DNA from: an uncultured Spirochaetales bacterium
Lineage (GTDB): Bacteria; Spirochaetota; Spirochaetia; SZUA-6
Assembly: GCA_964596425.1 (NCBI GenBank)
Contig: CAZQTC010000031.1
Location: 73,830 to 137,829, forward strand
DNA: 64,000 nt
Direction of reading: 5' to 3'
Part shown: piece by piece, positions 20,497 to 32,557 of the stretch
How the letters are laid out: each line of letters begins with the position of its first letter
Position numbering within the stretch: position 1 is the first letter of the stretch
Made by a program: the position numbers and the translations under genes
The notes under the pieces: model-generated
Told to the model about the DNA's origin: nothing
The model's input: the letters and a program-made list of their open reading frames with translations, nothing else
Database searches by the model: none

Positions 20497-22050
20497 CTAG
20501 AGACTGGCTATTACCTCTGTGATGAGTATCGTTATGTCGTCCTGAAAGTTTGGCTCTGCCATGTACATCATTAATTCCGAGAGCAGATTGTTTGACACAG
20601 CATCGATGTCATTATTTAAGTTTTCCTTCATAACTCTAATTATTCCCCGTTTCCCAAACTGTTCGTGGTTTTCATTCTCTGTTTCGAGTATCCCGTCTGT
20701 ATTGTATACAATTCTATCGCCGGGCTCCAATTCTATTGATTTCTCTTCGTATTCTGTGCCCTCAAACATTCCCAGGAAAAAACCCATCGTGGATAGCTCG
20801 GTTACCCTCCCGTCCGGATGAAAGAGAAGCTGATTAGGATGACCTGCATTAGAATAGTAGAGTTTCATCTCGTTCGTGTCAATGATAGAGTAGAAAGCGG
20901 TAATGTAGTGCTCCGTGTGAATCATGTGGGTAAACTCTTTGTTTAGTTTGGAGAGAGTTTCCGCTGTGGATAGTGACTGTGGAGCACAAAGGTCGAACTG
21001 GCTTTTAAACATTGTGGTAATAAAAGCGGAAGACACACCATGTCCGGAAACATCGGCTATTATAATTCCTACCTTACTTTTATCCAGTCTTTTAATGTCG
21101 AAGAAATCGCCCCCTATATAGGCGTAGGGTATGTATTTGTGGGCAAAGTTTAGGGGGAGATCCGTCGGAAACTCTTTTGGTAACAGGCTTTTTTGGAGCT
21201 CACTCGCAAGAGATAGTTCTTCCACTATTTGTCTGTTTTTCTTTTCAAGTTCTTCCAGAGCATTTTTCAGTTCGAGAGCCTGCTTTTGAAGGATTTCGTT
21301 TGCGGATTCCAATTCAATTGTGCGCTCTTTCAGTATGTTATCCTGTATTACATTGAGACGTTCACTCTTCTCTTCAAGATCCTTTATCTCCCTTATTTCG
21401 TTTATGAATAAAACCCATTTTGTCTTCTGAGGGAGTCCAGGGATATTGATGTGTTCGTAGGGCATTTTAGAGATGGTACAGGAAACCTCTTTGTTATGAG
21501 CGTCGGTTAGATACCTTATATGGTTTCCCTCACTGGTTGTATCTGGTATATCTTCTATGGGAAGACCAAATACCTCCTCAAATTTTTTCCCCTTCTGTTC
21601 CTTTAATTTATGTCCCAGAAACTCTCTATTGGTGGGTATGCATGAGATGATGTGTTGTTTATTATCTAAAAAGATGATCTGGACCGTTCCGCCTTCAAAG
21701 AAAGAACGTAGGAGCTGGAGACATACGTTTTTCTTTTTTCTTTTGACGAACCACTTAATCATCTTGGAGATCCAAAATGGATCGATCTCCTTTGGCAGGT
21801 ATAGTATTCTTTCCTCTCCGGCTTTTTCTTTGTCGGTGGCAAGGGCAAATATATAGGTCCCTTCTTCCGTTGCACTATTGAGCTGATCAGAGATTTCATC
21901 TAGAAAGTCGGTATCTAAGAATACAAATATATCGTTTTTTAGAAGAGAGATCTCCTCGGCGCCCCGGATTTTGAAGTTTATACCATCTTTTTTTAGTTCC
22001 TTTTGTAGATTTTCACATTCTTTGGCATCTCTCCCAACAAGTATGACCAA
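20497..22050 (-). CDS. SpoIIE/RsbU-like PP2C phosphatase with degenerate REC-like N-terminus, PAS-like domain and coiled coil
   Basis: ELQKSLLP, GGDFFD, IADVSGHG, NAGHP, YNTDGI, QDDITIL. Confidence 0.9.
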   Translation of the reverse strand: MVILVGRDAKECENLQKELKKDGINFKIRGAEEISLLKNDIFVFLDTDFLDEISDQLNSATEEGTYIFALATDKEKAGEERILYLPKEIDPFWISKMIKWFVKRKKKNVCLQLLRSFFEGGTVQIIFLDNKQHIISCIPTNREFLGHKLKEQKGKKFEEVFGLPIEDIPDTTSEGNHIRYLTDAHNKEVSCTISKMPYEHINIPGLPQKTKWVLFINEIREIKDLEEKSERLNVIQDNILKERTIELESANEILQKQALELKNALEELEKKNRQIVEELSLASELQKSLLPKEFPTDLPLNFAHKYIPYAYIGGDFFDIKRLDKSKVGIIIADVSGHGVSSAFITTMFKSQFDLCAPQSLSTAETLSKLNKEFTHMIHTEHYITAFYSIIDTNEMKLYYSNAGHPNQLLFHPDGRVTELSTMGFFLGMFEGTEYEEKSIELEPGDRIVYNTDGILETENENHEQFGKRGIIRVMKENLNNDIDAVSNNLLSELMMYMAEPNFQDDITILITEVIASL

Positions 22051-22723: not shown

Positions 22724-23527
22724 ATGAATCATATCAAGGCTTCTCTTAAAACAGACGACGGGTATAGGATACCGTATCATAGCTGGGAGCTTAGACAGGG
22801 TGGGTATAAATGGTTGGCTCTTGTACTTAGAGACCCCTATTTTCCTATTGAGCGGAATGAGCGACTGATCAATTTTTTGCTTGAGAATTACTTTAAGTTG
22901 TACGCACCTGAGATTCCTGAAATTTCTAATTCCGCAGGCAAGCCGATGGGGATAGATGGTTTTTCTGCGCATCTTGGGAGTTTTAGAGCCTTTCTTGAGG
23001 AAAAAGAGGATAATTTACCGATTGTACCCTTTGTCTTTTCTATATCTGCTCTCCCGTTTCTCTACTATTATTTTCATGTGCTTCCCCCCTTTAAAAAGAT
23101 AGTTATGTTTTCTCCCGTATTGGATTATTCGAAAAAGCCCCTGGAGGGTTCGTTGTTCTGCAAGAGCAGGATACAGGTTGCTTTTAGTGATGATATGCTC
23201 TCCGAGGTAGCTGCAGAGAGATCCGAGGCGGAGAAAGCTATGGACAAATCCCCCACTGTTTCGAAAAAATTGGTAAAGGATTTGAGACGAGAGTTTGCGA
23301 GTTTCCCGGGGGAGTTGGGAGTTGATACTGTTAATGTAAGAATCGGGGTTTTCTATGGAGAATCGGATGGTCTTGTCTCTGTTGAGAGAGTTAATGCTCT
23401 TAAAGATTCCCTTAAGAGTGGTGAGGTGGAGATATATACGTATCCCCGAGTACGTCATTTTATGTTCAATGACAAGTACTGGAAGAATTTGCTTAATGAT
23501 CTGAAGGTATTTTTGGGTAAGGAGTAG
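22724..23527 (+). CDS. Divergent alpha/beta hydrolase (lysophospholipase/PldB-like)
   Basis: DGYRIPYHSW N-terminus, FSPV, GESDGLV (Asp), RHFMF (His); nucleophile elbow reads VFSISA instead of GxSxG. Confidence 0.65.
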   Translation: MNHIKASLKTDDGYRIPYHSWELRQGGYKWLALVLRDPYFPIERNERLINFLLENYFKLYAPEIPEISNSAGKPMGIDGFSAHLGSFRAFLEEKEDNLPIVPFVFSISALPFLYYYFHVLPPFKKIVMFSPVLDYSKKPLEGSLFCKSRIQVAFSDDMLSEVAAERSEAEKAMDKSPTVSKKLVKDLRREFASFPGELGVDTVNVRIGVFYGESDGLVSVERVNALKDSLKSGEVEIYTYPRVRHFMFNDKYWKNLLNDLKVFLGKE

Positions 23528-23557: not shown

Positions 23558-24067
23558 CTATTTTAGCTTTTTTATCACGTTATCTATCAATTTTACCTCT
23601 CGCTGTACCGATTTTAAATAGATCGGGAGAGAGTTTTTATAGTTTATACATGATTTTACTATTATTTCTTTCTCTGCTTTCGTAAAACTTATTTTTTTTT
23701 CGGTTTTTTTCTTTTTCGTTTTTTTCTTCTCTGTTGTTTCTTCTTCTGTTGTTTTTACGGTATCTTCATAGGCTATAGAGTTTTCTCCTATAAGGGCTTC
23801 CTGGAGCGGAGATAATTTTTTCGTTTTTGTTTTTTTTCTGGTCTTTTTTTGCGCTTTGGTGGGGGGGGTGTCCTCTGCCTTTTCATCGATAATTTTTTCT
23901 TCGATAACGGTCTCGTTCAATGCCTCCTCGTTCTGAGTTTTGCTCTTCTCCTCTATCTCTTTTAGTACTTTGAAAATACTGGTTTCTGTTATATCTTTTG
24001 GTACCTGAGCTATTCGTTGTTCTACCCGCTCGGCATTTGGACCTTTTATTAACTTTTTTCTTCCCAT
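23558..24067 (-). CDS. Hypothetical Lys-rich protein downstream of parA (putative ParA partner)
   Basis: 169 aa; basic N-terminal peptide, Lys/Glu/Thr-rich linker, C-terminal helical hairpin; SD GGGGAG; no ParB GxxR motif. Confidence 0.65.
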   Translation of the reverse strand: MGRKKLIKGPNAERVEQRIAQVPKDITETSIFKVLKEIEEKSKTQNEEALNETVIEEKIIDEKAEDTPPTKAQKKTRKKTKTKKLSPLQEALIGENSIAYEDTVKTTEEETTEKKKTKKKKTEKKISFTKAEKEIIVKSCINYKNSLPIYLKSVQREVKLIDNVIKKLK

Positions 24068-24127
24068 TTTAGCTACTCCCCACTTTTTATAGATATCTGT
24101 TTATGCAGAGTATATTATAGGAAAATC

Positions 24128-24901
24128 TCATGAGTTTTCTAACCATTTTTCTACTTCTTTGGCTAATTCTTTAAAATCTTGTGCCCCTCTGGATTTGGGG
24201 GCATAGTCGAAGATTGTTTTTTGAGCGTATTGACTCTCTTCAACCGCGATGTTTTTATGTATTACGGTTTTAAAAACCATATCGCCTAACTGTTTCCTTA
24301 GAGTTGCAGCAAGGTCCTGGCTTATAACGGTGCGTTTGTCGTAGAGAGTAATAAAGTAACGGACACTTCTTAAGCCGGGATTACTCTCCCTCGCCTCTTT
24401 TATTGTTTCATTAAGATCACCCAATCCCTCCTGACAGAAGAATGTCGGCTGTACAGGAACAAGTACGTGGGTCGCGGCGAGTAGGGCTGAGATTGTAAAG
24501 AGACCGAGAGAGGGAGGGGTATCTATTACTATGTAATTAAAGTCTTTGTATACCTCCGGTAGAGCCTTCTTTAGGGTATTAAATGTGGAAAGAGTTCTCT
24601 CCAGATTTTCCACTCTGTTTAGTTTTGTGCGTGTTGGTATAATGAAGAGGTTTTCGTATGGGGTTTGTGTTATGAGTTCTCTTATATTAGCCTCCCCACG
24701 GTATAGAAGGGATACATCGCGTTCTATCTTTTCGTAGTCCATGATATTTCTTGTAAGGTTGGCCTGTGGGTCTGTATCTATCATAAGAACTTTTTTACCC
24801 TCGAGTGCCCATGCTGCAGATAAGGAGAGAACCGAGGTGGTTTTACAGACTCCCCCTTTCTGCTGAGCTACGCATAATATTTTTGGCTTATACCTCTTCA
24901 T
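24128..24901 (-). CDS. parA: ParA/Soj-family ATPase (orphan)
   Basis: QQKGGVCKTT Walker A variant, IDTDPQANLT, IDTPPSLG, final FKELAKEV. Confidence 0.9.
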   Translation of the reverse strand: MKRYKPKILCVAQQKGGVCKTTSVLSLSAAWALEGKKVLMIDTDPQANLTRNIMDYEKIERDVSLLYRGEANIRELITQTPYENLFIIPTRTKLNRVENLERTLSTFNTLKKALPEVYKDFNYIVIDTPPSLGLFTISALLAATHVLVPVQPTFFCQEGLGDLNETIKEARESNPGLRSVRYFITLYDKRTVISQDLAATLRKQLGDMVFKTVIHKNIAVEESQYAQKTIFDYAPKSRGAQDFKELAKEVEKWLENS

Positions 24902-25013
24902 GTTCTACTAATCGGCCTAAATTTCTTAAATATCAAAAAAAATCTTGCATATTATTTTTTCATTAATAATATATTTATTAGAGTGATACAATAAGCGCAT
25001 ATAAGGATAAAAA

Positions 25014-25919
25014 ATGGGGAAAGTCTACTCTGTAGGTTTCAAGGAAGAAGAGCACAGTAAAATTGGGGAGATTGTTTCCAAGAAGGGACTTGAATTTGTA
25101 GAACTTACAGAGGATGTGGTAGAAACTCTTTCTGCGGCGGAGAGACATACCCCGGTGTTTATCAAGGTTGATGACAGGGAGGGGGTCAAATTATTAAAGA
25201 AAATAAAGACAGAGGCGGGGGAGAATATATATGTGTGTGGAGTAGATTACTCTAACAGGGATATAGCGTTTGCTGTTTCTCTGATTGATGATGTTCGGGT
25301 GTTTTATCTCCCGGTGGATGAAAACGAGATTCGTAAGGTTCTCAATGAGATAATGGAGGAGATAAGGGTAGGGGAGGCGGAAACCTCGGTTTTTGACGGG
25401 CTTAAGAGTTCGTTTTCTAGTTTTGAATGGGAAACAGACAAGGTCGCTGTTTCGAGTGTGTGTAAGTATTTGGCACGTTCTATGAGGAACGCGGGTTTTT
25501 ATAAAACCTCTACGGAGGAGGATAATGCTGTTCTTGCTCTGGAGGAGGCCCTGTTGAACTCGATTGAGCATGGTAATCTGGAGTTAGATTCTTCTTTAAG
25601 GCCGAAGGACATTTTGGAAGAGGATAAATATGAGCTTTTGAAGGCGGAGAGACTAAGGGATAAGAGATATGCGGGTAGGAAGATTAAGATAGGTGTAGAG
25701 ATGGATGAAAATAAGTGCACTATATCTATTGAGGATGAAGGGCAAGGATTTGATACTTCAAAGGTAAAAGATTATATTAATAATGAAAATTATACCAACG
25801 AGGATATAGCTGACGTTTCTGGTAAGGGATTCTCGTTGATGAAGAGGGCATTTGATAAAGTCGAGTACAACGACAGGGGAACTGTTATTAAATTAACTAA
25901 ATACAGAGATAAGAGTTAA
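25014..25919 (+). CDS. RsbW-like anti-sigma factor / Ser kinase (HATPase_c_2) with N-terminal pseudo-receiver
   Basis: EALLNSIEHGN, IEDEGQGFD, SGKGFSLM, YNDRGT; N-terminal REC-like pattern lacks the acidic pocket. Confidence 0.82.
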   Translation: MGKVYSVGFKEEEHSKIGEIVSKKGLEFVELTEDVVETLSAAERHTPVFIKVDDREGVKLLKKIKTEAGENIYVCGVDYSNRDIAFAVSLIDDVRVFYLPVDENEIRKVLNEIMEEIRVGEAETSVFDGLKSSFSSFEWETDKVAVSSVCKYLARSMRNAGFYKTSTEEDNAVLALEEALLNSIEHGNLELDSSLRPKDILEEDKYELLKAERLRDKRYAGRKIKIGVEMDENKCTISIEDEGQGFDTSKVKDYINNENYTNEDIADVSGKGFSLMKRAFDKVEYNDRGTVIKLTKYRDKS

Positions 25920-25930
25920 AGGAGGTTCAG

Positions 25931-26173
25931 ATGGAACTATCTGAGAAAGAACTAAAGATTGTACTGCAGTCTTTGAAGAGTTATCTTGGTGAGGTTGCTG
26001 GAGCTACTCAGGCACAGAAAAACAAGATGGAGGCAGTGCAAAAAATTATAGATAAGATAGAAGGGGAGATTGGTCCCCTAAAACCGGAAATAACACCTTT
26101 TGATAAAAAGATGGAAGAGTCCCTTTCAGTATTGAAAAAGGGCAAACAAACAACTAAGAAAAAGAAAAAATAG
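25931..26173 (+). CDS. Small hypothetical protein (helical hairpin + poly-Lys tail)
   Basis: 80 aa; SD GGAGG; in operon spacing. Confidence 0.7.
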   Translation: MELSEKELKIVLQSLKSYLGEVAGATQAQKNKMEAVQKIIDKIEGEIGPLKPEITPFDKKMEESLSVLKKGKQTTKKKKK

Positions 26174-26181
26174 GAGGAAAT

Positions 26182-26901
26182 ATGGCTAAGCAAGAAGAAC
26201 AAGCAAAATTGTGGAGTCGTGAGGCTATAATGGCTGTAGAGAATAGGATTCTACAGCAGATTGTGGCAGCCCGTACTCCGGAGGCGGTAGAAGCCGCAAT
26301 AAGTTATGCGCGATTTCTAAGGCTTTCAGGATTGACTTCAGATAACTATCCCCTATTCCTAAAGATGCTAGAAATAGAGAACCATTGGGTTCTTGACGCT
26401 CTAATAGGGGATGAGGATCCGTTCCTGTTGCTCTCTACCATCCAACCCAACAGGTATGTAATTTCGACCTGTTTTAAGCTTTTGACAAGGTGGCATCCGG
26501 GTGGTATCTATCCCAACACACTCTCAATAGCCCTAGGTGTGCTTCAGAGCGCCTACAGCTCTCCAAAGGATGGGTATAAAATTTATCCATTAAATGTGGC
26601 TGATGTTGATAACCTCGGTAAGCACCTTGAGAAGGAGAAGGGACAGAACTATCCCCAGAACCGATGTATTCTGGATATCCTTGATAGGATAGGTTCCCTT
26701 CAAGGTCTGGGTTGGGATGAATCTATGGAGGAGGTAGCACGACAGGCCATAAGGATTAGGAGTAACTTCTTTGATAATACAAAGAAGTTGGAGGATTGTA
26801 TTCCTCAGGTTTTGCTTGTAAGAGGCGATTATCTTAAAGAGGAGGTTCCTCCGAGGTTTGTCTTTGAAGAAGATATCGATGTAACCCATAGGCACGATTA
26901 A
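26182..26901 (+). CDS. Hypothetical protein, paralog A of tandem pair
   Basis: 239 aa; SD GGAGG; about 55-60% identical (hand alignment) to 26931..27650. Confidence 0.85.
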   Translation: MAKQEEQAKLWSREAIMAVENRILQQIVAARTPEAVEAAISYARFLRLSGLTSDNYPLFLKMLEIENHWVLDALIGDEDPFLLLSTIQPNRYVISTCFKLLTRWHPGGIYPNTLSIALGVLQSAYSSPKDGYKIYPLNVADVDNLGKHLEKEKGQNYPQNRCILDILDRIGSLQGLGWDESMEEVARQAIRIRSNFFDNTKKLEDCIPQVLLVRGDYLKEEVPPRFVFEEDIDVTHRHD

Positions 26902-26930
26902 TAATCATTTTAGGAAAAAGGAGAAGAGAT

Positions 26931-27650
26931 ATGGATGAATTAATAGCACAAGAAACGTGGACGCCAGAGCAAATAGCTGAAATTGAGAATAGATTATTAC
27001 AGGGAATCTTCGGTTGTCGTTCCTATGAGGCTGTTGAAGCTGCTATGACCTACGCAGCTTTCTTAAACACCGTTGGTTTAACCCCGGAGAACTACCCTGT
27101 ATTTTTAAGAATGCTTGAAATAGAGAATCACTGGGTAATTGATGCTCTGATAGGTGATAAGGATCCATTTTTGTTGTTATCACCTGTTCAGCCAAATAGG
27201 TACATTGTGGGAAAGATATTTGGAATGATGACCAAGTGGCACAAGGGTGGTATCTATCCCAAGAATCTCTCTGTTATCCTTGGTGTATTACAGTCTAATT
27301 ATAGTTCACCGAGGGATGGGTATAGAATTTATCCGTTAAGCATTTCGGATTTGAACGCTCTTGGTAAACATCTTGATAAAGAAAAGGGACAGGACGACGC
27401 TCTTAATAGAACAATACTTGATATACTTGATAAGATTTCCCAGTTGGAGGGTGTTGGTACGGATCCTGAGATGGAAGAGGTTGCAATTCATGCCTCTGCC
27501 ATAAGAAACGCATTCTTTGACGATAGAAAGAGAATGGAAGATGTTATTCCTCCCGTTCTCTTGGTAAAGGCGAGCTATCACGAAAAGGAGGTTGCACCTA
27601 GAAAACGTATTCCTTTGAAAGAAAAACTTAAAAAAGAAAAGGAAAAGTAG
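26931..27650 (+). CDS. Hypothetical protein, paralog B of tandem pair
   Basis: 239 aa; SD AGGAG; shares MLEIENHWV, DPFLLLS, GGIYP, LGKHL, ILDILD with paralog A. Confidence 0.85.
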   Translation: MDELIAQETWTPEQIAEIENRLLQGIFGCRSYEAVEAAMTYAAFLNTVGLTPENYPVFLRMLEIENHWVIDALIGDKDPFLLLSPVQPNRYIVGKIFGMMTKWHKGGIYPKNLSVILGVLQSNYSSPRDGYRIYPLSISDLNALGKHLDKEKGQDDALNRTILDILDKISQLEGVGTDPEMEEVAIHASAIRNAFFDDRKRMEDVIPPVLLVKASYHEKEVAPRKRIPLKEKLKKEKEK

Positions 27651-28736
27651 GTGGAACGGATAGAAAGGTATTCCAAACTCCTCGAGCAGGTTGATTTTGA
27701 AAACGGTGTCACAATCGAGGACCGTACCTATTACGGTCCCGATGATGTTATTAATGAGCTTAGAGAGCTCGAGGAGCTGTATCAGGCATTGAAGGACTTT
27801 GATATTTTGAGCCTATACGATAGGACGATAGCCCATGACGGCCTTCATGATGAGGATATATACGATCATGGGAGGTACTACGCGTACTTCAGCTTTGAGC
27901 TTAAGGGGCAGAGTAGTGAGGAGAAAGAGGAAAACCTTGTAAATGCCCTTGGAGAGATTGTAGAGCGCTTTGGTAAAGAGCGGGTGCTTAAGTACTTTCC
28001 CAACAGGATCAAGGGCCGTCAAGTGACGGAGGATTTAAAGATAAGACCCGAGGATGAGGATTACCCCTCCTACTATTCTCAGTTTAGGATGGACTATGCC
28101 GAGAAGATGGCGAAAGAAGAGGTGCCTGGCGAGGTGCTCTCCAGAATCCGTGATGATCAGGATGCTATTTTAGATCGCTACGATTGGAATGCGATATATA
28201 TTGCGGATACGGATGGGGAATTGATTGAGGTTTGCGGGGATGTATATCTGGTTCCTCGGGATAAATTGGAGAAGGTATCCCTCTATGCGAGGCTTTGGAA
28301 TGAACTGATTGATAAGGGAGAAGAACATTTCTATGAGTTTTCCATAGCAACGGATGGTGAGTACCCCAAGGATGAGAATAATCCCTATGGGAGGTACTAT
28401 GCCTATGTAAAGTTGGAGCTTAAAGGCCTTAGCGATGAGGGGAGGGTAAAGTTTTTAGAGGAAAACCTTTCGGAGGATATAGTTAAGGGGCTGGGAATTG
28501 ATGAGGTCTCTAGTATTTTCCCTAAGCGGATAGACGGAGACCTTGTTACGCAGCCGTTAACGATTCGTCCCGACGAAGAGGAGTTTCCTTCTCATTTTAA
28601 TGAGAAAAAGGTAGAGCAGGGTAGAAAGCGAGCTTATAAACAGGTTCTCTTTAATATAAGAGCAGAGATTGTGGAACGACTCAAGAGAATCTTGGGGGAA
28701 ATCAAAAAGGCAATTATCTTGGAACAAACTGAATAA
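27651..28736 (+). CDS. Hypothetical acidic protein built of two internal repeats
   Basis: 361 aa; GRYYAY..ELKG..FP.RI.G..VT..L.IRP occurs twice; GTG start abuts the previous stop. Confidence 0.8.
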   Translation: MERIERYSKLLEQVDFENGVTIEDRTYYGPDDVINELRELEELYQALKDFDILSLYDRTIAHDGLHDEDIYDHGRYYAYFSFELKGQSSEEKEENLVNALGEIVERFGKERVLKYFPNRIKGRQVTEDLKIRPEDEDYPSYYSQFRMDYAEKMAKEEVPGEVLSRIRDDQDAILDRYDWNAIYIADTDGELIEVCGDVYLVPRDKLEKVSLYARLWNELIDKGEEHFYEFSIATDGEYPKDENNPYGRYYAYVKLELKGLSDEGRVKFLEENLSEDIVKGLGIDEVSSIFPKRIDGDLVTQPLTIRPDEEEFPSHFNEKKVEQGRKRAYKQVLFNIRAEIVERLKRILGEIKKAIILEQTE

Positions 28737-28763
28737 TTAAAACTATTAGGAGGAGGAAAGAGC

Positions 28764-29072
28764 ATGGATATTGATCTCGAAAAAAATGGTGATACTGTAA
28801 AAATGATAATTGATGGAAATATTGATACGGATGGTGGGCATCAGCTCTCGGTAAAAATTCAGGAAATAATGGAGATGGATGATGTAATGCATGTTATATG
28901 TGATATGACGACGGTTAAGACGATTACTTCATCTGGTATAGGGAAATTGATGAATTTTTATAAATTTATGGATTCTAAAGGTGGAACATTCGAGATAAAG
29001 GGAATCTCTGATAACCTTTACAAGCAGTTTATGGAGATCCATCTTGACAGAATCTTTCCCATAAACAAATAA
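28764..29072 (+). CDS. STAS-domain anti-sigma factor antagonist 1
   Basis: 102 aa; IDGNID, ICDMTTVKTITSSGIGKL; SD AGGAGG. Confidence 0.88.
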   Translation: MDIDLEKNGDTVKMIIDGNIDTDGGHQLSVKIQEIMEMDDVMHVICDMTTVKTITSSGIGKLMNFYKFMDSKGGTFEIKGISDNLYKQFMEIHLDRIFPINK

Positions 29073-29083
29073 GGAGGAATTCC

Positions 29084-29905
29084 TTGAATCATATAGTAAC
29101 GAGTTTTCGAAATCATAAAGGTGAGAAACTCTTTTATCACTATTGGGAAGAGTCCAGTAAGAGTTATAACAAAATAATTGTACTATTACACGGTATCTGC
29201 TATCATGCTGGTTCTTACCCGTACCTGATTCCTGCCCTAATATCGAAAGGATTTAAGGTGTACGCCTTTGATTTTCAGGGGTTTGGTAAGAGTCCGGGTG
29301 ATAGGGGAGATATAGACAATTTTAAGAAGTATGTGGATGATTTGGAGTCTTTTAGGCGGATGATAAAGGGTAGGGAGGGTTACAGAGAAATAATATTCCT
29401 CGGACATTCTCTGGGAGCAAACGTTGCCCTTGCATACCCTTTAAGGTATCCTGAAAATCCTGTAAGAACGATTTTTGCCTCATTGCTCCTCTCTTCCCCG
29501 CTGATTGATAGTGCTGTGAAAGAGGAGGGTTCTCCCATTGATGTTACTCTGGAAGATTTTGTAACGGATAAGGCACGGGTAGACTCTCTTATGGAGGATG
29601 AGCTTGTTGTGAAGCAGATTTCCAAGCGACTTCTTCAGTTTATTGACAGCTCGAATAGAGAGGTTATGGAGAATCTTGATAAATTGAAAGATGGAAAGTT
29701 TCTCTTTCTCCATGGGGAGTTTGATAAAATATCCTCTGTGGACGCTGTCGAAAAATTATACGAGAGATTGGAGTGTAAGAGGAAAAAACTTGTAACCTTC
29801 CCAAGGATGTTGCATGACATCTTTGCAGAGAAGAGGAGAGAACAGGTGTTTAATGCCATTGCTCTGTGGTTGAGCGAGACGGAATTTGAGCATAAAGCAC
29901 CTTAA
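29084..29905 (+). CDS. Alpha/beta hydrolase, lysophospholipase (PldB-like)
   Basis: LLHGI, DFQGFGKSPG, GHSLG, GEFD, HDIF catalytic triad. Confidence 0.9.
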   Translation: MNHIVTSFRNHKGEKLFYHYWEESSKSYNKIIVLLHGICYHAGSYPYLIPALISKGFKVYAFDFQGFGKSPGDRGDIDNFKKYVDDLESFRRMIKGREGYREIIFLGHSLGANVALAYPLRYPENPVRTIFASLLLSSPLIDSAVKEEGSPIDVTLEDFVTDKARVDSLMEDELVVKQISKRLLQFIDSSNREVMENLDKLKDGKFLFLHGEFDKISSVDAVEKLYERLECKRKKLVTFPRMLHDIFAEKRREQVFNAIALWLSETEFEHKAP

Positions 29906-29938
29906 CAGTTTGATTAAAACGACTGAGAGGAGAGGGAT

Positions 29939-30250
29939 ATGGATCTTGATATTGTAATAGAAGATGATACTGTGTATTTTAAAGTTTCGGGCCCGATAGA
30001 TACAGAGGGAGGTTCTGAACTGACGAATAAGTTTATGGAAATAGCCAGTGATGAAACGATAAAGAATGCTGAGTTCGATCTGAGTGAGGTACCAACTATT
30101 ACAAGTGCCGGTATAGGAAAGCTTTTGAGGTTTTTCAAACACTTCGACAAGCTTGGTGGAAAGATGAAGATAAAGGGTATCTCAGATTCACTTAAGGAGC
30201 AGTTTGCAGAAATCCATCTTGATCAGATAATCCCCGTAGAGGATAAGTGA
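29939..30250 (+). CDS. STAS-domain anti-sigma factor antagonist 2
   Basis: 103 aa; VSGPID, FDLSEVPTITSAGIGKL; paralog of 28764..29072. Confidence 0.88.
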   Translation: MDLDIVIEDDTVYFKVSGPIDTEGGSELTNKFMEIASDETIKNAEFDLSEVPTITSAGIGKLLRFFKHFDKLGGKMKIKGISDSLKEQFAEIHLDQIIPVEDK

Positions 30251-30300
30251 ATCTGTAGGCAGGTTGGATAGTATAGATTTGATAAATACATAGATTAGCT

Positions 30301-30333
30301 AAAAAGGGAGTACGAGTTTGTACTCCCTTTTTA
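30301..30333. terminator. Bidirectional intrinsic terminator
   Basis: AAAAAGGGAGTAC-gagttt-GTACTCCCTTTTTT between convergent genes. Confidence 0.85.
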
Positions 30334-30354
30334 TTTGTTTCGATATCTGTGAGG

Positions 30355-31560
30355 CTATTTCAGTGTGACATCTCTACCGTCTTTTATAACATACAGCGGT
30401 TTTTCATGCTCTGTTAGTGCCTCCCACACAGTAGTTGCATTTAACACCACCAGATTCGCCGGGTTACCCTCTTCTAGTTTGAAGTTTTTAATTCCCATTG
30501 CCTTTGCACCGTTGGTGGTTATTAGATCGTAGAGAATATCCATTTCCTCGAAAGTTGTCATCCACATGAGATGTGCAGCTAAAAATGCTACCTCTAGCAT
30601 ATTGTTTCTGCCGAATGGATAGTAAGCATCCGCTATATCGTCCTGTCCTAAGGCTACACTCACACCCTCGTCGTACAAATCGCGAACCCTTGCGTGTAGT
30701 GGACCCGTCTGAGGGTCGCTAACTATACCAATGTTGGCCTTTTTTAGGAGTGCCACGATTTTTCTAAAGTATGGTTCTGGATACAGTGCCATTGCCCTGG
30801 CATGATGTACCATCACGCGGCCTTCCCATCCCTCTTTGATTGTCTTCACTGCAAGCATTTCCAGTGTTCTAAGTCCCGGATCCCCTGCGTCGTCTATTAG
30901 CATCGAAACATCTCTATCGTATTTTTTTGCAATCTCGAACATCCTGTCTATATGCTCCTGAGCATCGGCGTCGGTGTACTCTATCCATGGAATTCCCCCG
31001 ACGACATCCGCTCCCAATTCCATTGCCTCTCTAACGTAATCCTCGGCCCCCGGGTCTCGTACAACACCATCCTGTGGAAAGGCAACAACCTGTAGCTCTA
31101 CAGAATCTTTAAACTCTTCTCTTGCCTTTATGAGGGCCTTTACCCCCTCCAACTTTGCCTTTGTGTCGGTATCCGCAAAAGCCCTTATATGAGTGACACC
31201 GTATTTTATCGCCAGTTTTGCCGCTTTTCTTACGTTTTCTATTATCCAGCTCTCATCGTATTTCTCCTTTACCTTGGAGGCGAGTTCGATAGCTGTCATC
31301 GCTTTGCCCATCGATCCTCCCTGGTAAGAGGTAAGAGCCTCTTCTCCCACCATAGTAAGGGTGTACACCTTGCATAGATGCAGATGTCCATTTGCAAAGG
31401 ATTCTGTAACGAGCTTCCCGTCGGCGTTAATTGTCTGAGCTGCATCCTCCGAGATGTTCTCTGCGATTTTTTTGATTTTCCCCTCAGCGATTCCGATATC
31501 TACTGTCTTGTTTCCGGAAAATCTTGTCTTGGCATTTTTGATTAGAATATCGTAGCTCAT
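30355..31560 (-). CDS. CodA-like amidohydrolase (cytosine/creatinine deaminase-related) with atypical ligands
   Basis: GHLHLCK, VAFPQDG, VVGGIP, HARAM, GQDD..DAYYPFG, GNPANLVVL; HCDE position reads LIDD. Confidence 0.8.
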   Translation of the reverse strand: MSYDILIKNAKTRFSGNKTVDIGIAEGKIKKIAENISEDAAQTINADGKLVTESFANGHLHLCKVYTLTMVGEEALTSYQGGSMGKAMTAIELASKVKEKYDESWIIENVRKAAKLAIKYGVTHIRAFADTDTKAKLEGVKALIKAREEFKDSVELQVVAFPQDGVVRDPGAEDYVREAMELGADVVGGIPWIEYTDADAQEHIDRMFEIAKKYDRDVSMLIDDAGDPGLRTLEMLAVKTIKEGWEGRVMVHHARAMALYPEPYFRKIVALLKKANIGIVSDPQTGPLHARVRDLYDEGVSVALGQDDIADAYYPFGRNNMLEVAFLAAHLMWMTTFEEMDILYDLITTNGAKAMGIKNFKLEEGNPANLVVLNATTVWEALTEHEKPLYVIKDGRDVTLK

Positions 31561-31603
31561 TTTCTCCTCCTAAAAGTAATATTGTTATAAAGGGTTATTA
31601 AAG

Positions 31604-32557
31604 TTATAAATCAAGCCAGGTAGTAAAATTCTTTATCCCCTGGACGGTGATTTTTGCGGCTTTTTGGGCATCGCGCTTTAAGATGCCAACGCCCTTATTG
31701 AATATTGAGGTTAAGAACTCGTAAATATTGTCAAAAACGTCCGGTACATTGTAAAAAAGTATGGCAAAATCATTTTTTCTCGGTTTTACTATCGTAAATG
31801 ACGAGTAAGATATAATTGGTTTTTTACCTATATATACGGTGTCATGCTTTTTTGTTGTCAGAGTGAATAACTCAGAGAACCTGTAGGGAATGCTCTTGCC
31901 ACTTTCCCGTTGTACTGGTTCTATGTTCTTGAATGGGTAGTTTGCAGGTTCTATTAGAACGTATAATTTGCAACCGGCCGATTTAAAGACCAGTGTGTCC
32001 CCCTCTAACCTTATCTCCTGTACGTTGTCGTATCCCGCGATTTCGAAAATAGAGTAGTTTGTATCCGGTTGAAAGTTGGATGATACGATGTAGCCCCCGT
32101 ATTTGGGTAGTTTCCCCTGCCTATAGGCTTCGAATAGATGAACAGCCTGGAGTTTTTTCTTTCTCTTTGGAGGGGTAATCTTTTCCTTTACTACTTCTTC
32201 GGGTTTTTTTCTTTTAGTGGTCTTTTGTGAGGGTTCCTTTTTAGGGGTTTCTTTCTCAACAGGAGGAATTTCAACTGTTGTAGAAATATCGGATTTTTTC
32301 TTGGTTTTTCTACTTGGCTTTTTCCCTTTTGGTTGGGCTATGGGGGCAACTTCGAGGTTCTCTGATTTCTCTTTGAGTTCTTCGATTGTTTTTTTCTTTC
32401 TCTTTGAGTTTCTACGAAGTTTCTCGAGCGTTTCTATTAGGTCTTCGCATTCCTCTCTTACCCTTTGATCTTTGGAGCTTATACCTCCTCCGTATATTAC
32501 CTCGTACTGCTGGACAATTTCTATTAGACGTTCTATCTGGTTATCAGAGAGCTCCAT
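31604..32557 (-). CDS. Hypothetical protein: N-terminal helical hairpin, Lys-rich linker, C-terminal globular domain
   Basis: Start reassigned to MELSDNQ at 32557 because a consensus promoter overlaps the longer ORF start. Confidence 0.75.
   Translation of the reverse strand: MELSDNQIERLIEIVQQYEVIYGGGISSKDQRVREECEDLIETLEKLRRNSKRKKKTIEELKEKSENLEVAPIAQPKGKKPSRKTKKKSDISTTVEIPPVEKETPKKEPSQKTTKRKKPEEVVKEKITPPKRKKKLQAVHLFEAYRQGKLPKYGGYIVSSNFQPDTNYSIFEIAGYDNVQEIRLEGDTLVFKSAGCKLYVLIEPANYPFKNIEPVQRESGKSIPYRFSELFTLTTKKHDTVYIGKKPIISYSSFTIVKPRKNDFAILFYNVPDVFDNIYEFLTSIFNKGVGILKRDAQKAAKITVQGIKNFTTWLDL

Follow-up and report, generated by a model that had tools for sequence, protein, structure and literature searches.

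The 64,000-nucleotide stretch analysed here (the window; positions 73,830 to 137,829 of contig CAZQTC010000031.1, assembly GCA_964596425.1, from an uncultured Spirochaetales bacterium) holds a chromosomal gene cluster that combines a ParA/MinD-family ATPase, two paralogous 239-residue proteins (p239a and p239b) and three lysine-rich proteins, two of which share a small helical-hairpin module. The region is composed of a divergent gene pair on the minus strand, encoding ParA and its partner, and an operon on the plus strand, with the third lysine-rich gene further on, again on the minus strand. The ParA partner, here called A, has 169 residues (23558-24067, minus strand); B is an 80-residue operon product (25931-26173, plus strand); and C has 317 residues (31604-32557, minus strand), with the ATG at 32557 as its start, confirmed by homologues. 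The initial annotation of this DNA had proposed that one module recurs in A, B and C; the three open reading frames (ORFs), the segments quoted from them and their poly-Lys tracts are present as it described. A, B and C are the sole strongly basic proteins (isoelectric point 9.5-9.6) of an otherwise acidic cluster.

A lies 61 nt downstream of the ParA gene (24128..24901, minus strand), whose product carries the deviant Walker A motif KGGVCKTT, matches Pfam AAA_31 (2e-44) and CbiA as well as NCBIfam ParA_partition (7e-34), and is 66-77% identical across spirochaete loci. The plus-strand operon opens with an RsbW/SpoIIAB-like HATPase_c_2 gene (25014..25919; Pfam PF13581, 6e-15), conserved in its cluster position and encoding a protein with an extra N-terminal domain. 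B follows, and its stop codon sits 9 nt before the start of p239a (26182..26901, plus strand), the first 239-residue paralogue and a candidate part of the docking target discussed below. The second paralogue, p239b (26931..27650, plus strand), is also 239 residues long and is 57% identical to p239a. Next comes p361 (27651..28736, plus strand), encoding a very acidic 361-residue protein (net charge -31) with an internal duplication, its halves being 36% identical (E=1e-20) and repeating a YGRYYAY..ELKG motif; no complete spirochaete cluster lacks p361, whose conservation is confined to the spirochaete form of the locus.

The operon closes with a partner-switching tail in conserved order (28764..30250, plus strand; Pfam STAS and Hydrolase_4), composed of a first STAS gene (28764-29072), an alpha/beta hydrolase gene (29084-29905) and a second STAS gene (29939-30250). 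On the other side of the ParA-A pair lie an alpha/beta hydrolase gene conserved alongside the cluster (22724-23527) and a SpoIIE/PP2C-type phosphatase gene (20497..22050, minus strand), assigned by Pfam annotation in related loci and kept beside the pair. The partner-switching set around the spirochaete p239 genes is complete and conserved, and the combination of SpoIIE phosphatase, RsbW-like kinase and two STAS proteins suggests partner-switching control. A, B, C, p239a, p239b and p361 are all named 'hypothetical protein' in the databases and have nothing near a curated threshold in Pfam or NCBIfam. By sequence, p239a, p239b, C and p361 match nothing in the PDB. No carboxysome, bacterial microcompartment (BMC), chemotaxis or flagellar genes lie nearby, p239a finds no match in plasmid or phage collections, and one keyword literature search found no published description of this specific cluster.

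The module forms the C-terminus of A (residues 126-169, ISFTKAEKEIIVKSCINYKNSLPIYLKSVQREVKLIDNVIKKLK; 23561..23692, minus strand) and the N-terminus of B (residues 1-45; 25931..26065, plus strand). Iterative hidden Markov model (HMM) searches seeded with the family of either protein converge on one model of 42-44 columns, which matches A at residues 128-168 (E=2.9e-18) and B at residues 2-45 (E=2.7e-17). This similarity is invisible at the single-sequence level, pairwise BLASTP of A, B and C giving no matches. It is also weak in profile comparisons of the first-pass families, which held eight close sequences each (hhalign B vs A, P=0.0056; B vs C, P=5e-4; A vs C, P=0.43). The comparison became decisive only after 74 extra loci were harvested by a genome scan with the 239-residue proteins and the six-frame ORFs of all loci were searched. 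When 8,431 real ORFs were mixed with 16,862 reversed or shuffled decoys, the A and B seeds both converged on one set of 67 ORFs, without a single decoy or any further drift. The bridge between the families requires an inclusion threshold of E<=1e-3, hence the control with decoys; at E<=1e-5, the B family is not extended.

The two families are bridged by a group of small module proteins (T-type), 41-160 residues long, that carry the module at or near the C-terminus. Between the enlarged groups, hhalign gives P=6e-25 for A vs T, P=5e-10 for B vs T and P=1e-5 for A vs B, the last over all 42 columns without a gap, and MAFFT on the raw proteins returns the same A/B register, in agreement with the gap-free alignment first drawn by hand. 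The initial annotation had named a comparison of profiles against shuffles as its test beforehand: for A vs B, the observed score of 26.0 compares with 9.0±2.0 for column shuffles, none of 200 of which reach it (z about 8). The weakest bridging matches (E 6e-5 to 6e-4) all lie at the same genomic position, beside the p239 pair, and are thereby independently corroborated. The B module is a divergent paralogue of its A- and T-type counterparts.

These data bear directly on the suggestion that nothing but chance lies behind the entire pattern, with amphipathic, Lys-rich helices in an AT-rich genome looking alike. The non-significant pairwise BLASTP and the weak small-family values for B vs A and A vs C are what chance would give, and the [ST]xxE-type N-cap motif is a generic helix start; for A and B, however, the decoy, shuffle and bridging tests refute it, and every bridging match occupies a conserved genomic position. 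We regard chance as a very improbable explanation of the pattern as a whole, excluded for A and B and able to account at most for the resemblance of C. The A/B module is a real, unannotated domain family, present here in two paralogous copies of a small domain.

Searching the joint A and B profile against 1.84 billion representative proteins revealed 142 clusters at E<=1e-3, all of A-, B- or T-type except four repeat-protein artefacts. The A-type proteins carry the module C-terminally in chains of 110-236 residues that start MARK..LIKG, and the B-type proteins carry it at residues 1-44 of chains of 79-162 residues. Clustered at 50% identity, this new family of small domains numbers about 140 clusters in five phyla, with no Pfam or NCBIfam match, as had been anticipated. 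The four artefacts (P0196, P0272, P0265 and P0249) contain TPR-like or other repeats of the form ...GDLPGALQxYRxSLxIxxKL..., whose weak matches to the 45-column profile are summed, and they are false positives for the family.

The module consensus reads D[FL]xxxExxx[LIV][LIV][KQR][ASC][CL]xx[YF]Rxx[LIV][PS]x[YA][LS]x[SA]xQx[EK]...[IV][DE]x[IV]Ix K[LIC], with a conserved Asp at the first position. AlphaFold2 folds the A module into two helices (residues 130-146 and 152-168) joined by a loop (147-151), with a predicted local distance difference test score (pLDDT) of 91-94. Residues conserved in all three groups include the hydrophobic core and a polar/aromatic cluster around the turn ([YF]17, R18, P/S22, S/A27 and Q29), which resembles an epitope recognised by a conserved partner. 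The turn aromatic, singled out as Tyr18 by the initial annotation, is indeed conserved, being Tyr in all A-type proteins, Tyr in 86% of T-type proteins and Phe or Tyr in B-type proteins. B-type modules are set apart at five positions, by L14, S22, A24, S25 and K31 in place of the C, P, Y, L and E of A and T. The Cys at position 14 (Cys140 of A, 23648-23650) is invariant in helix 1 of the A- and T-types. The net charge of the module ranges from -6 to +4 across lineages, many of which have a neutral or acidic module.

At its simplest, the module makes up a protein of 44-100 residues, often with a basic disordered tail, and true standalone modules of 44-60 residues exist in other phyla. Its placement is therefore as varied as proposed (standalone, C-terminal and N-terminal), except that B is not a standalone form: its family is conserved over the full length and includes a further conserved 25-residue segment. 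Positions 26066..26173 (plus strand) encode this extension (EIGPLKPExTPFDxxMEESLSVLKxGK), which does not vary among B-family members, and after it a short poly-Lys tail and the stop. In high-GC relatives, the B tail spans 55-78 residues, is rich in Ala, Lys and Pro, and has a net charge of +12 to +20; these tails are histone-H1-like. Since basic disorder beside the hairpin is kept in high-GC relatives, with Ala/Pro/Arg-rich sequence replacing lysine, it is selected and not a by-product of AT-richness.

C is composed of an N-terminal helical hairpin (residues 1-50; 32408..32557, minus strand), a basic disordered linker (residues 51-137; 32147..32407, minus strand; net charge +17, pLDDT 46-69) and a C-terminal alpha/beta domain (residues 138-317, with the stop; 31604..32146, minus strand; pLDDT >95; 383 homologues). 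The hairpin is modelled with helices at residues 5-23 and 28-63 and a loop at 24-27 (pLDDT 91-97). Across the C family, the N-terminal ~45 residues and the 180-residue C-terminal domain are conserved, while the basic linker between them varies in length and sequence. The C-terminal domain is widespread in spirochaetes as standalone proteins of ~181 residues (>300), and Foldseek finds no PDB fold match for the C model (best E=0.16, TM score <=0.15). Two of the standalone homologues (locus L080, 6001-6549; locus L081, 6001-6552) lie ~3.7 kb from genes for CfpA_C, the cytoplasmic filament protein, and TP_0747_N.

Gene order ties C to the cluster, as the initial annotation had proposed. C lies directly upstream of the kinase-like gene in Rectinemataceae and Treponemataceae metagenome-assembled genomes (MAGs), directly downstream of the second STAS gene and on the same strand in two other lineages, and inverted behind an inserted amidohydrolase gene in the clade of the window. 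Through these three arrangements, C belongs to the same conserved cluster.

Whether its hairpin belongs to the same domain family is another matter. In one reading, A, B and C all carry one homologous module, the hairpins pair as four-helix bundles, and hetero-oligomers bridge ParA, the operon products and C. The predicted shapes are closely alike, as had been expected: AlphaFold2 gives both the A module, to which B is aligned, and the C N-terminus a hairpin with pLDDT >90, the two being equal in length and having nearly coincident turns. C likewise conserves the aromatic residue at position 17/18, and it combines a hairpin with a basic intrinsically disordered region in the same cluster, the design that A and B also show. 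The closest PDB shapes to the A hairpin, in non-significant matches, pair into four-helix bundles. An HMM of the C hairpin ranks module proteins first among its non-self matches, aligned over their modules, at E=2-30 only, and hhalign scores the module against the C N-terminus at P=0.011 (empirically about 0.025, with 5 of 200 column shuffles reaching the score).

That alignment requires a four-residue gap in place of the one insertion drawn by hand, and its hhalign probability is 3.7%. The similarity of C is non-significant in every test: the module HMM misses C even at E<=50, and no C-type protein is found among the 142 library clusters. The invariant cores also differ, QYxVIYGGGISxxD..REEC in C vs YRxxLPxYLxSxQ in the module, and the family alignment of C shows Q17, G23-G25, I26, S27, D30, R34 and C37 to be invariant. 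The invariant Cys37 of C (32447-32449) is located in helix 2, within REEC, and differs from Cys14 of the module. A hairpin fold is too simple to prove homology. Moreover, loci in four phyla encode a single hairpin protein each, and hetero-pairing among hairpins therefore cannot be the ancestral function. We consider it doubtful that the C hairpin is homologous to the module, and equally doubtful that a module common to all three proteins builds hetero-oligomers. The C hairpin is better described as a second hairpin family of the cluster, different or unrecognisably diverged, with marginal similarity to the module; the claim of a module common to three proteins stands for A and B and reduces, for C, to a marginal profile score and to shape and size.

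Comparative genomics places the module beside the p239 pair. p239 genes are carried in 74 loci from Spirochaetota, Acidobacteriota, Myxococcota, Desulfobacterota and Fibrobacterota, all of them MAGs. p239a and p239b are 85-87% identical among spirochaete lineages and 70-77% across phyla. No other protein of the cluster is under such constraint, identities among the remaining components being 26-77% in the same spirochaete lineages, and this suggests a structural heteromer. Of 38 two-paralogue loci with at least 3 kb of flank, 36, spanning five phyla, carry a module gene at a distance of 3-460 bp from the p239 pair, in line with the earlier proposal that module and operon are linked. Outside the spirochaetes, in the four other phyla, the unit that is conserved runs p239a, p239b and then, 3-460 bp further on, a T-type module protein, usually followed by a receiver-like protein with a coiled coil of 500-1000 residues. 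This REC/coiled-coil protein accompanies the triad in 19-22 non-spirochaete loci (loci L023-L052 hold such proteins, for example L049, 12060-14405, and L028, 13570-16743). No adjacent ParA, A-type protein or C was found in the non-spirochaete triad loci. We considered, and dropped, a relationship between the REC domain of these coiled-coil proteins and the REC-like stretch at the N-terminus of the window's kinase-like protein, the match being non-significant (P=0.013).

A itself is organised in three parts. The N-terminal segment (23942..24067, minus strand), M[AG]RK[KR]LIKGxNAxRVExRIAxxPxD... in the family alignment, is basic, its 42 residues being nearly invariant across the family, and is the putative ParA-contacting peptide. 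The following linker (residues 43-125; 23693..23941, minus strand; pLDDT mostly below 60) is Lys-rich and disordered; neither its sequence nor its length is conserved, yet it is net basic in all orthologues (+3 to +17). The hairpin then closes the protein. A lies directly downstream of ParA without exception, in the window and in 20 further loci (21 loci). As a general rule, partners of ParA/MinD ATPases use a charged N-terminus for the ATPase and the rest of the protein for cargo (PMC10241942), and it is by analogy with these partner proteins that we assign the N-terminus of A to ParA contact. A is best read, we infer, as a ParA adaptor, in which the basic N-terminal peptide and the disordered linker would be followed by a hairpin that binds cargo.

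The homologous modules of A and B, the class of fold and the genomic linkage are shown; on that footing, we propose a binding partner, a stimulation of ParA and a role in positioning. The hairpin would act as a protein-protein docking element that attaches its carrier to a p239a/p239b assembly. The N-terminus of A would engage and stimulate ParA while its hairpin holds the cargo, so that the p239 assembly could be positioned or partitioned by ParA. The spirochaete lineage would use the hairpin twice, in A and in B, where it is joined to a conserved segment and a basic tail; B is probably a resident component or assembly factor. C probably docks analogously through its own hairpin, contributing its C-terminal domain. 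Because several T-type proteins consist of little besides the hairpin, whatever function keeps their gene next to p239 must reside in the hairpin. The docking or oligomerisation role foreseen by the initial annotation is reasonable in this light, although the comparative data point first to the p239 pair and not to A-B-C hetero-oligomers as the candidate partner.

We hold docking onto the p239a/p239b assembly, with A as a ParA adaptor holding p239 cargo, to be somewhat more probable than its contrary. Three points weigh against it. Gene adjacency cannot separate binding of the hairpin to p239 from binding to another hairpin or to the REC/coiled-coil protein. p239 can exist without the module, given that the flanks of loci L053-L066, from spirochaete MAGs with three or four tandem p239 paralogues (~62% identity), contain no detectable module, ParA partner, B or C. 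The hairpin-p239 interaction is putative, as are nucleoid binding by ParA and its response to A.

The hairpin might alternatively only homo-dimerise, as a four-helix bundle, with partners met by the C-terminal segment of B or by basic tails acting on acidic p361 or p239 or on nucleic acid. Dimerisation is common among hairpins of this size, the PDB shapes nearest to this one serve in dimerisation or docking, and B carries a second invariant segment of 25 residues; basic tails are conserved beside the hairpin, and the other cluster proteins, p361 included, are acidic. Several T-type proteins of 44-58 residues, however, offer little more than the hairpin itself, and conservation is strongest in the polar turn residues and not only on the hydrophobic helix faces. 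We judge homo-dimerisation as the sole role of the hairpin to be unlikely, and slightly less credible than a module common to A, B and C.

Beyond docking, p239a and p239b may assemble into a cytoplasmic structure not recognised before (for example a filament, lattice or protein organelle), for which the hairpin would be the docking tag, with ParA positioning the assembly through A, partner switching supplying phospho-control, and B and C acting as basic disordered accessory factors. This fuller picture is tentative, and we consider it possible but not probable. For most of the many orphan ParA ATPases the cargo is not known; the comparison of genomes made here points to both a candidate cargo, the p239 pair, and the element that would link it to ParA. 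The hairpin could serve as a bait, tag or co-expression partner and so reveal what p239a and p239b build. All carriers are uncultured and known only as MAGs, and the system is otherwise invisible.

Among known systems, the type Ib centromere-binding proteins (ParG, ParR and omega) resemble A in being small, encoded after a small ParA and built from a flexible basic N-terminal tail and a C-terminal domain of ~45 residues; in the type Ib proteins, the tail acts on the ATPase. On this model, the module would be a ribbon-helix-helix (RHH)-like DNA-binding domain, A a ParG/ParR-type centromere binder and the T-types regulators of the p239 genes, with DNA partition or regulation as the function. Basic tails do flank the module, and small operon-adjacent genes are often autoregulators. 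Unlike these proteins, the module has no RHH signature: searches of Pfam (at E<=10) and of PDB sequences match no RHH family or structure, nor does Foldseek. It starts at residue 2 in B-type and some T-type proteins, leaving no room for a DNA-reading beta strand, opens on a conserved Asp and, in many lineages, bears a neutral or negative net charge. Rather than on a plasmid, the locus lies on the chromosome, where it is linked to a protein operon, and the cluster is absent from plasmid and phage collections. The missing RHH matches, the lack of room for a beta strand and the charge led us to reject DNA binding by the module, which we now see as a remote prospect.

The IcmR-IcmQ and QUA1 docking hairpins, which form four-helix bundles, share with the module a pair of antiparallel ~17-residue helices with a short turn between them. 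Superposed on 3fxd (IcmR-IcmQ), the A module deviates by a root mean square of 1.6 Å over 43 residues at 14% identity (Foldseek E about 3, non-significant), and the fold is too simple to imply common ancestry. Encapsulin cargo-loading peptides and BMC encapsulation peptides offer a likeness limited to function: they, too, are short helical elements found on varied carriers, at either terminus, and linked to structural genes. They measure 10-20 residues, whereas the element here is a two-helix hairpin of 44 residues, and p239a and p239b match no encapsulin or BMC family.

In its proposed function, A resembles the partners of ParA/MinD ATPases, such as McdB, ParP/CheW-like adaptors and PomX, which share with it the ParA neighbour, the basic N-terminal peptide, the disordered linker and the C-terminal element (PMC10241942). 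A shows no sequence relation to McdB, ParB or any annotated partner. It differs from McdB in that its locus holds no BMC or carboxysome genes, no family match is found, and no Trp lies near its C-terminus; on the features tested, A falls outside the McdB, ParB and RHH centromere-binding groups. Compared with known partners, A is distinguished by its presumed cargo, the uncharacterised 239-residue pair, and by a putative cargo-binding element that also occurs as a free-standing gene in phyla with no adjacent ParA. By analogy, the system would be of the ParA adaptor type, equipped with a new docking domain and a highly conserved candidate cargo.

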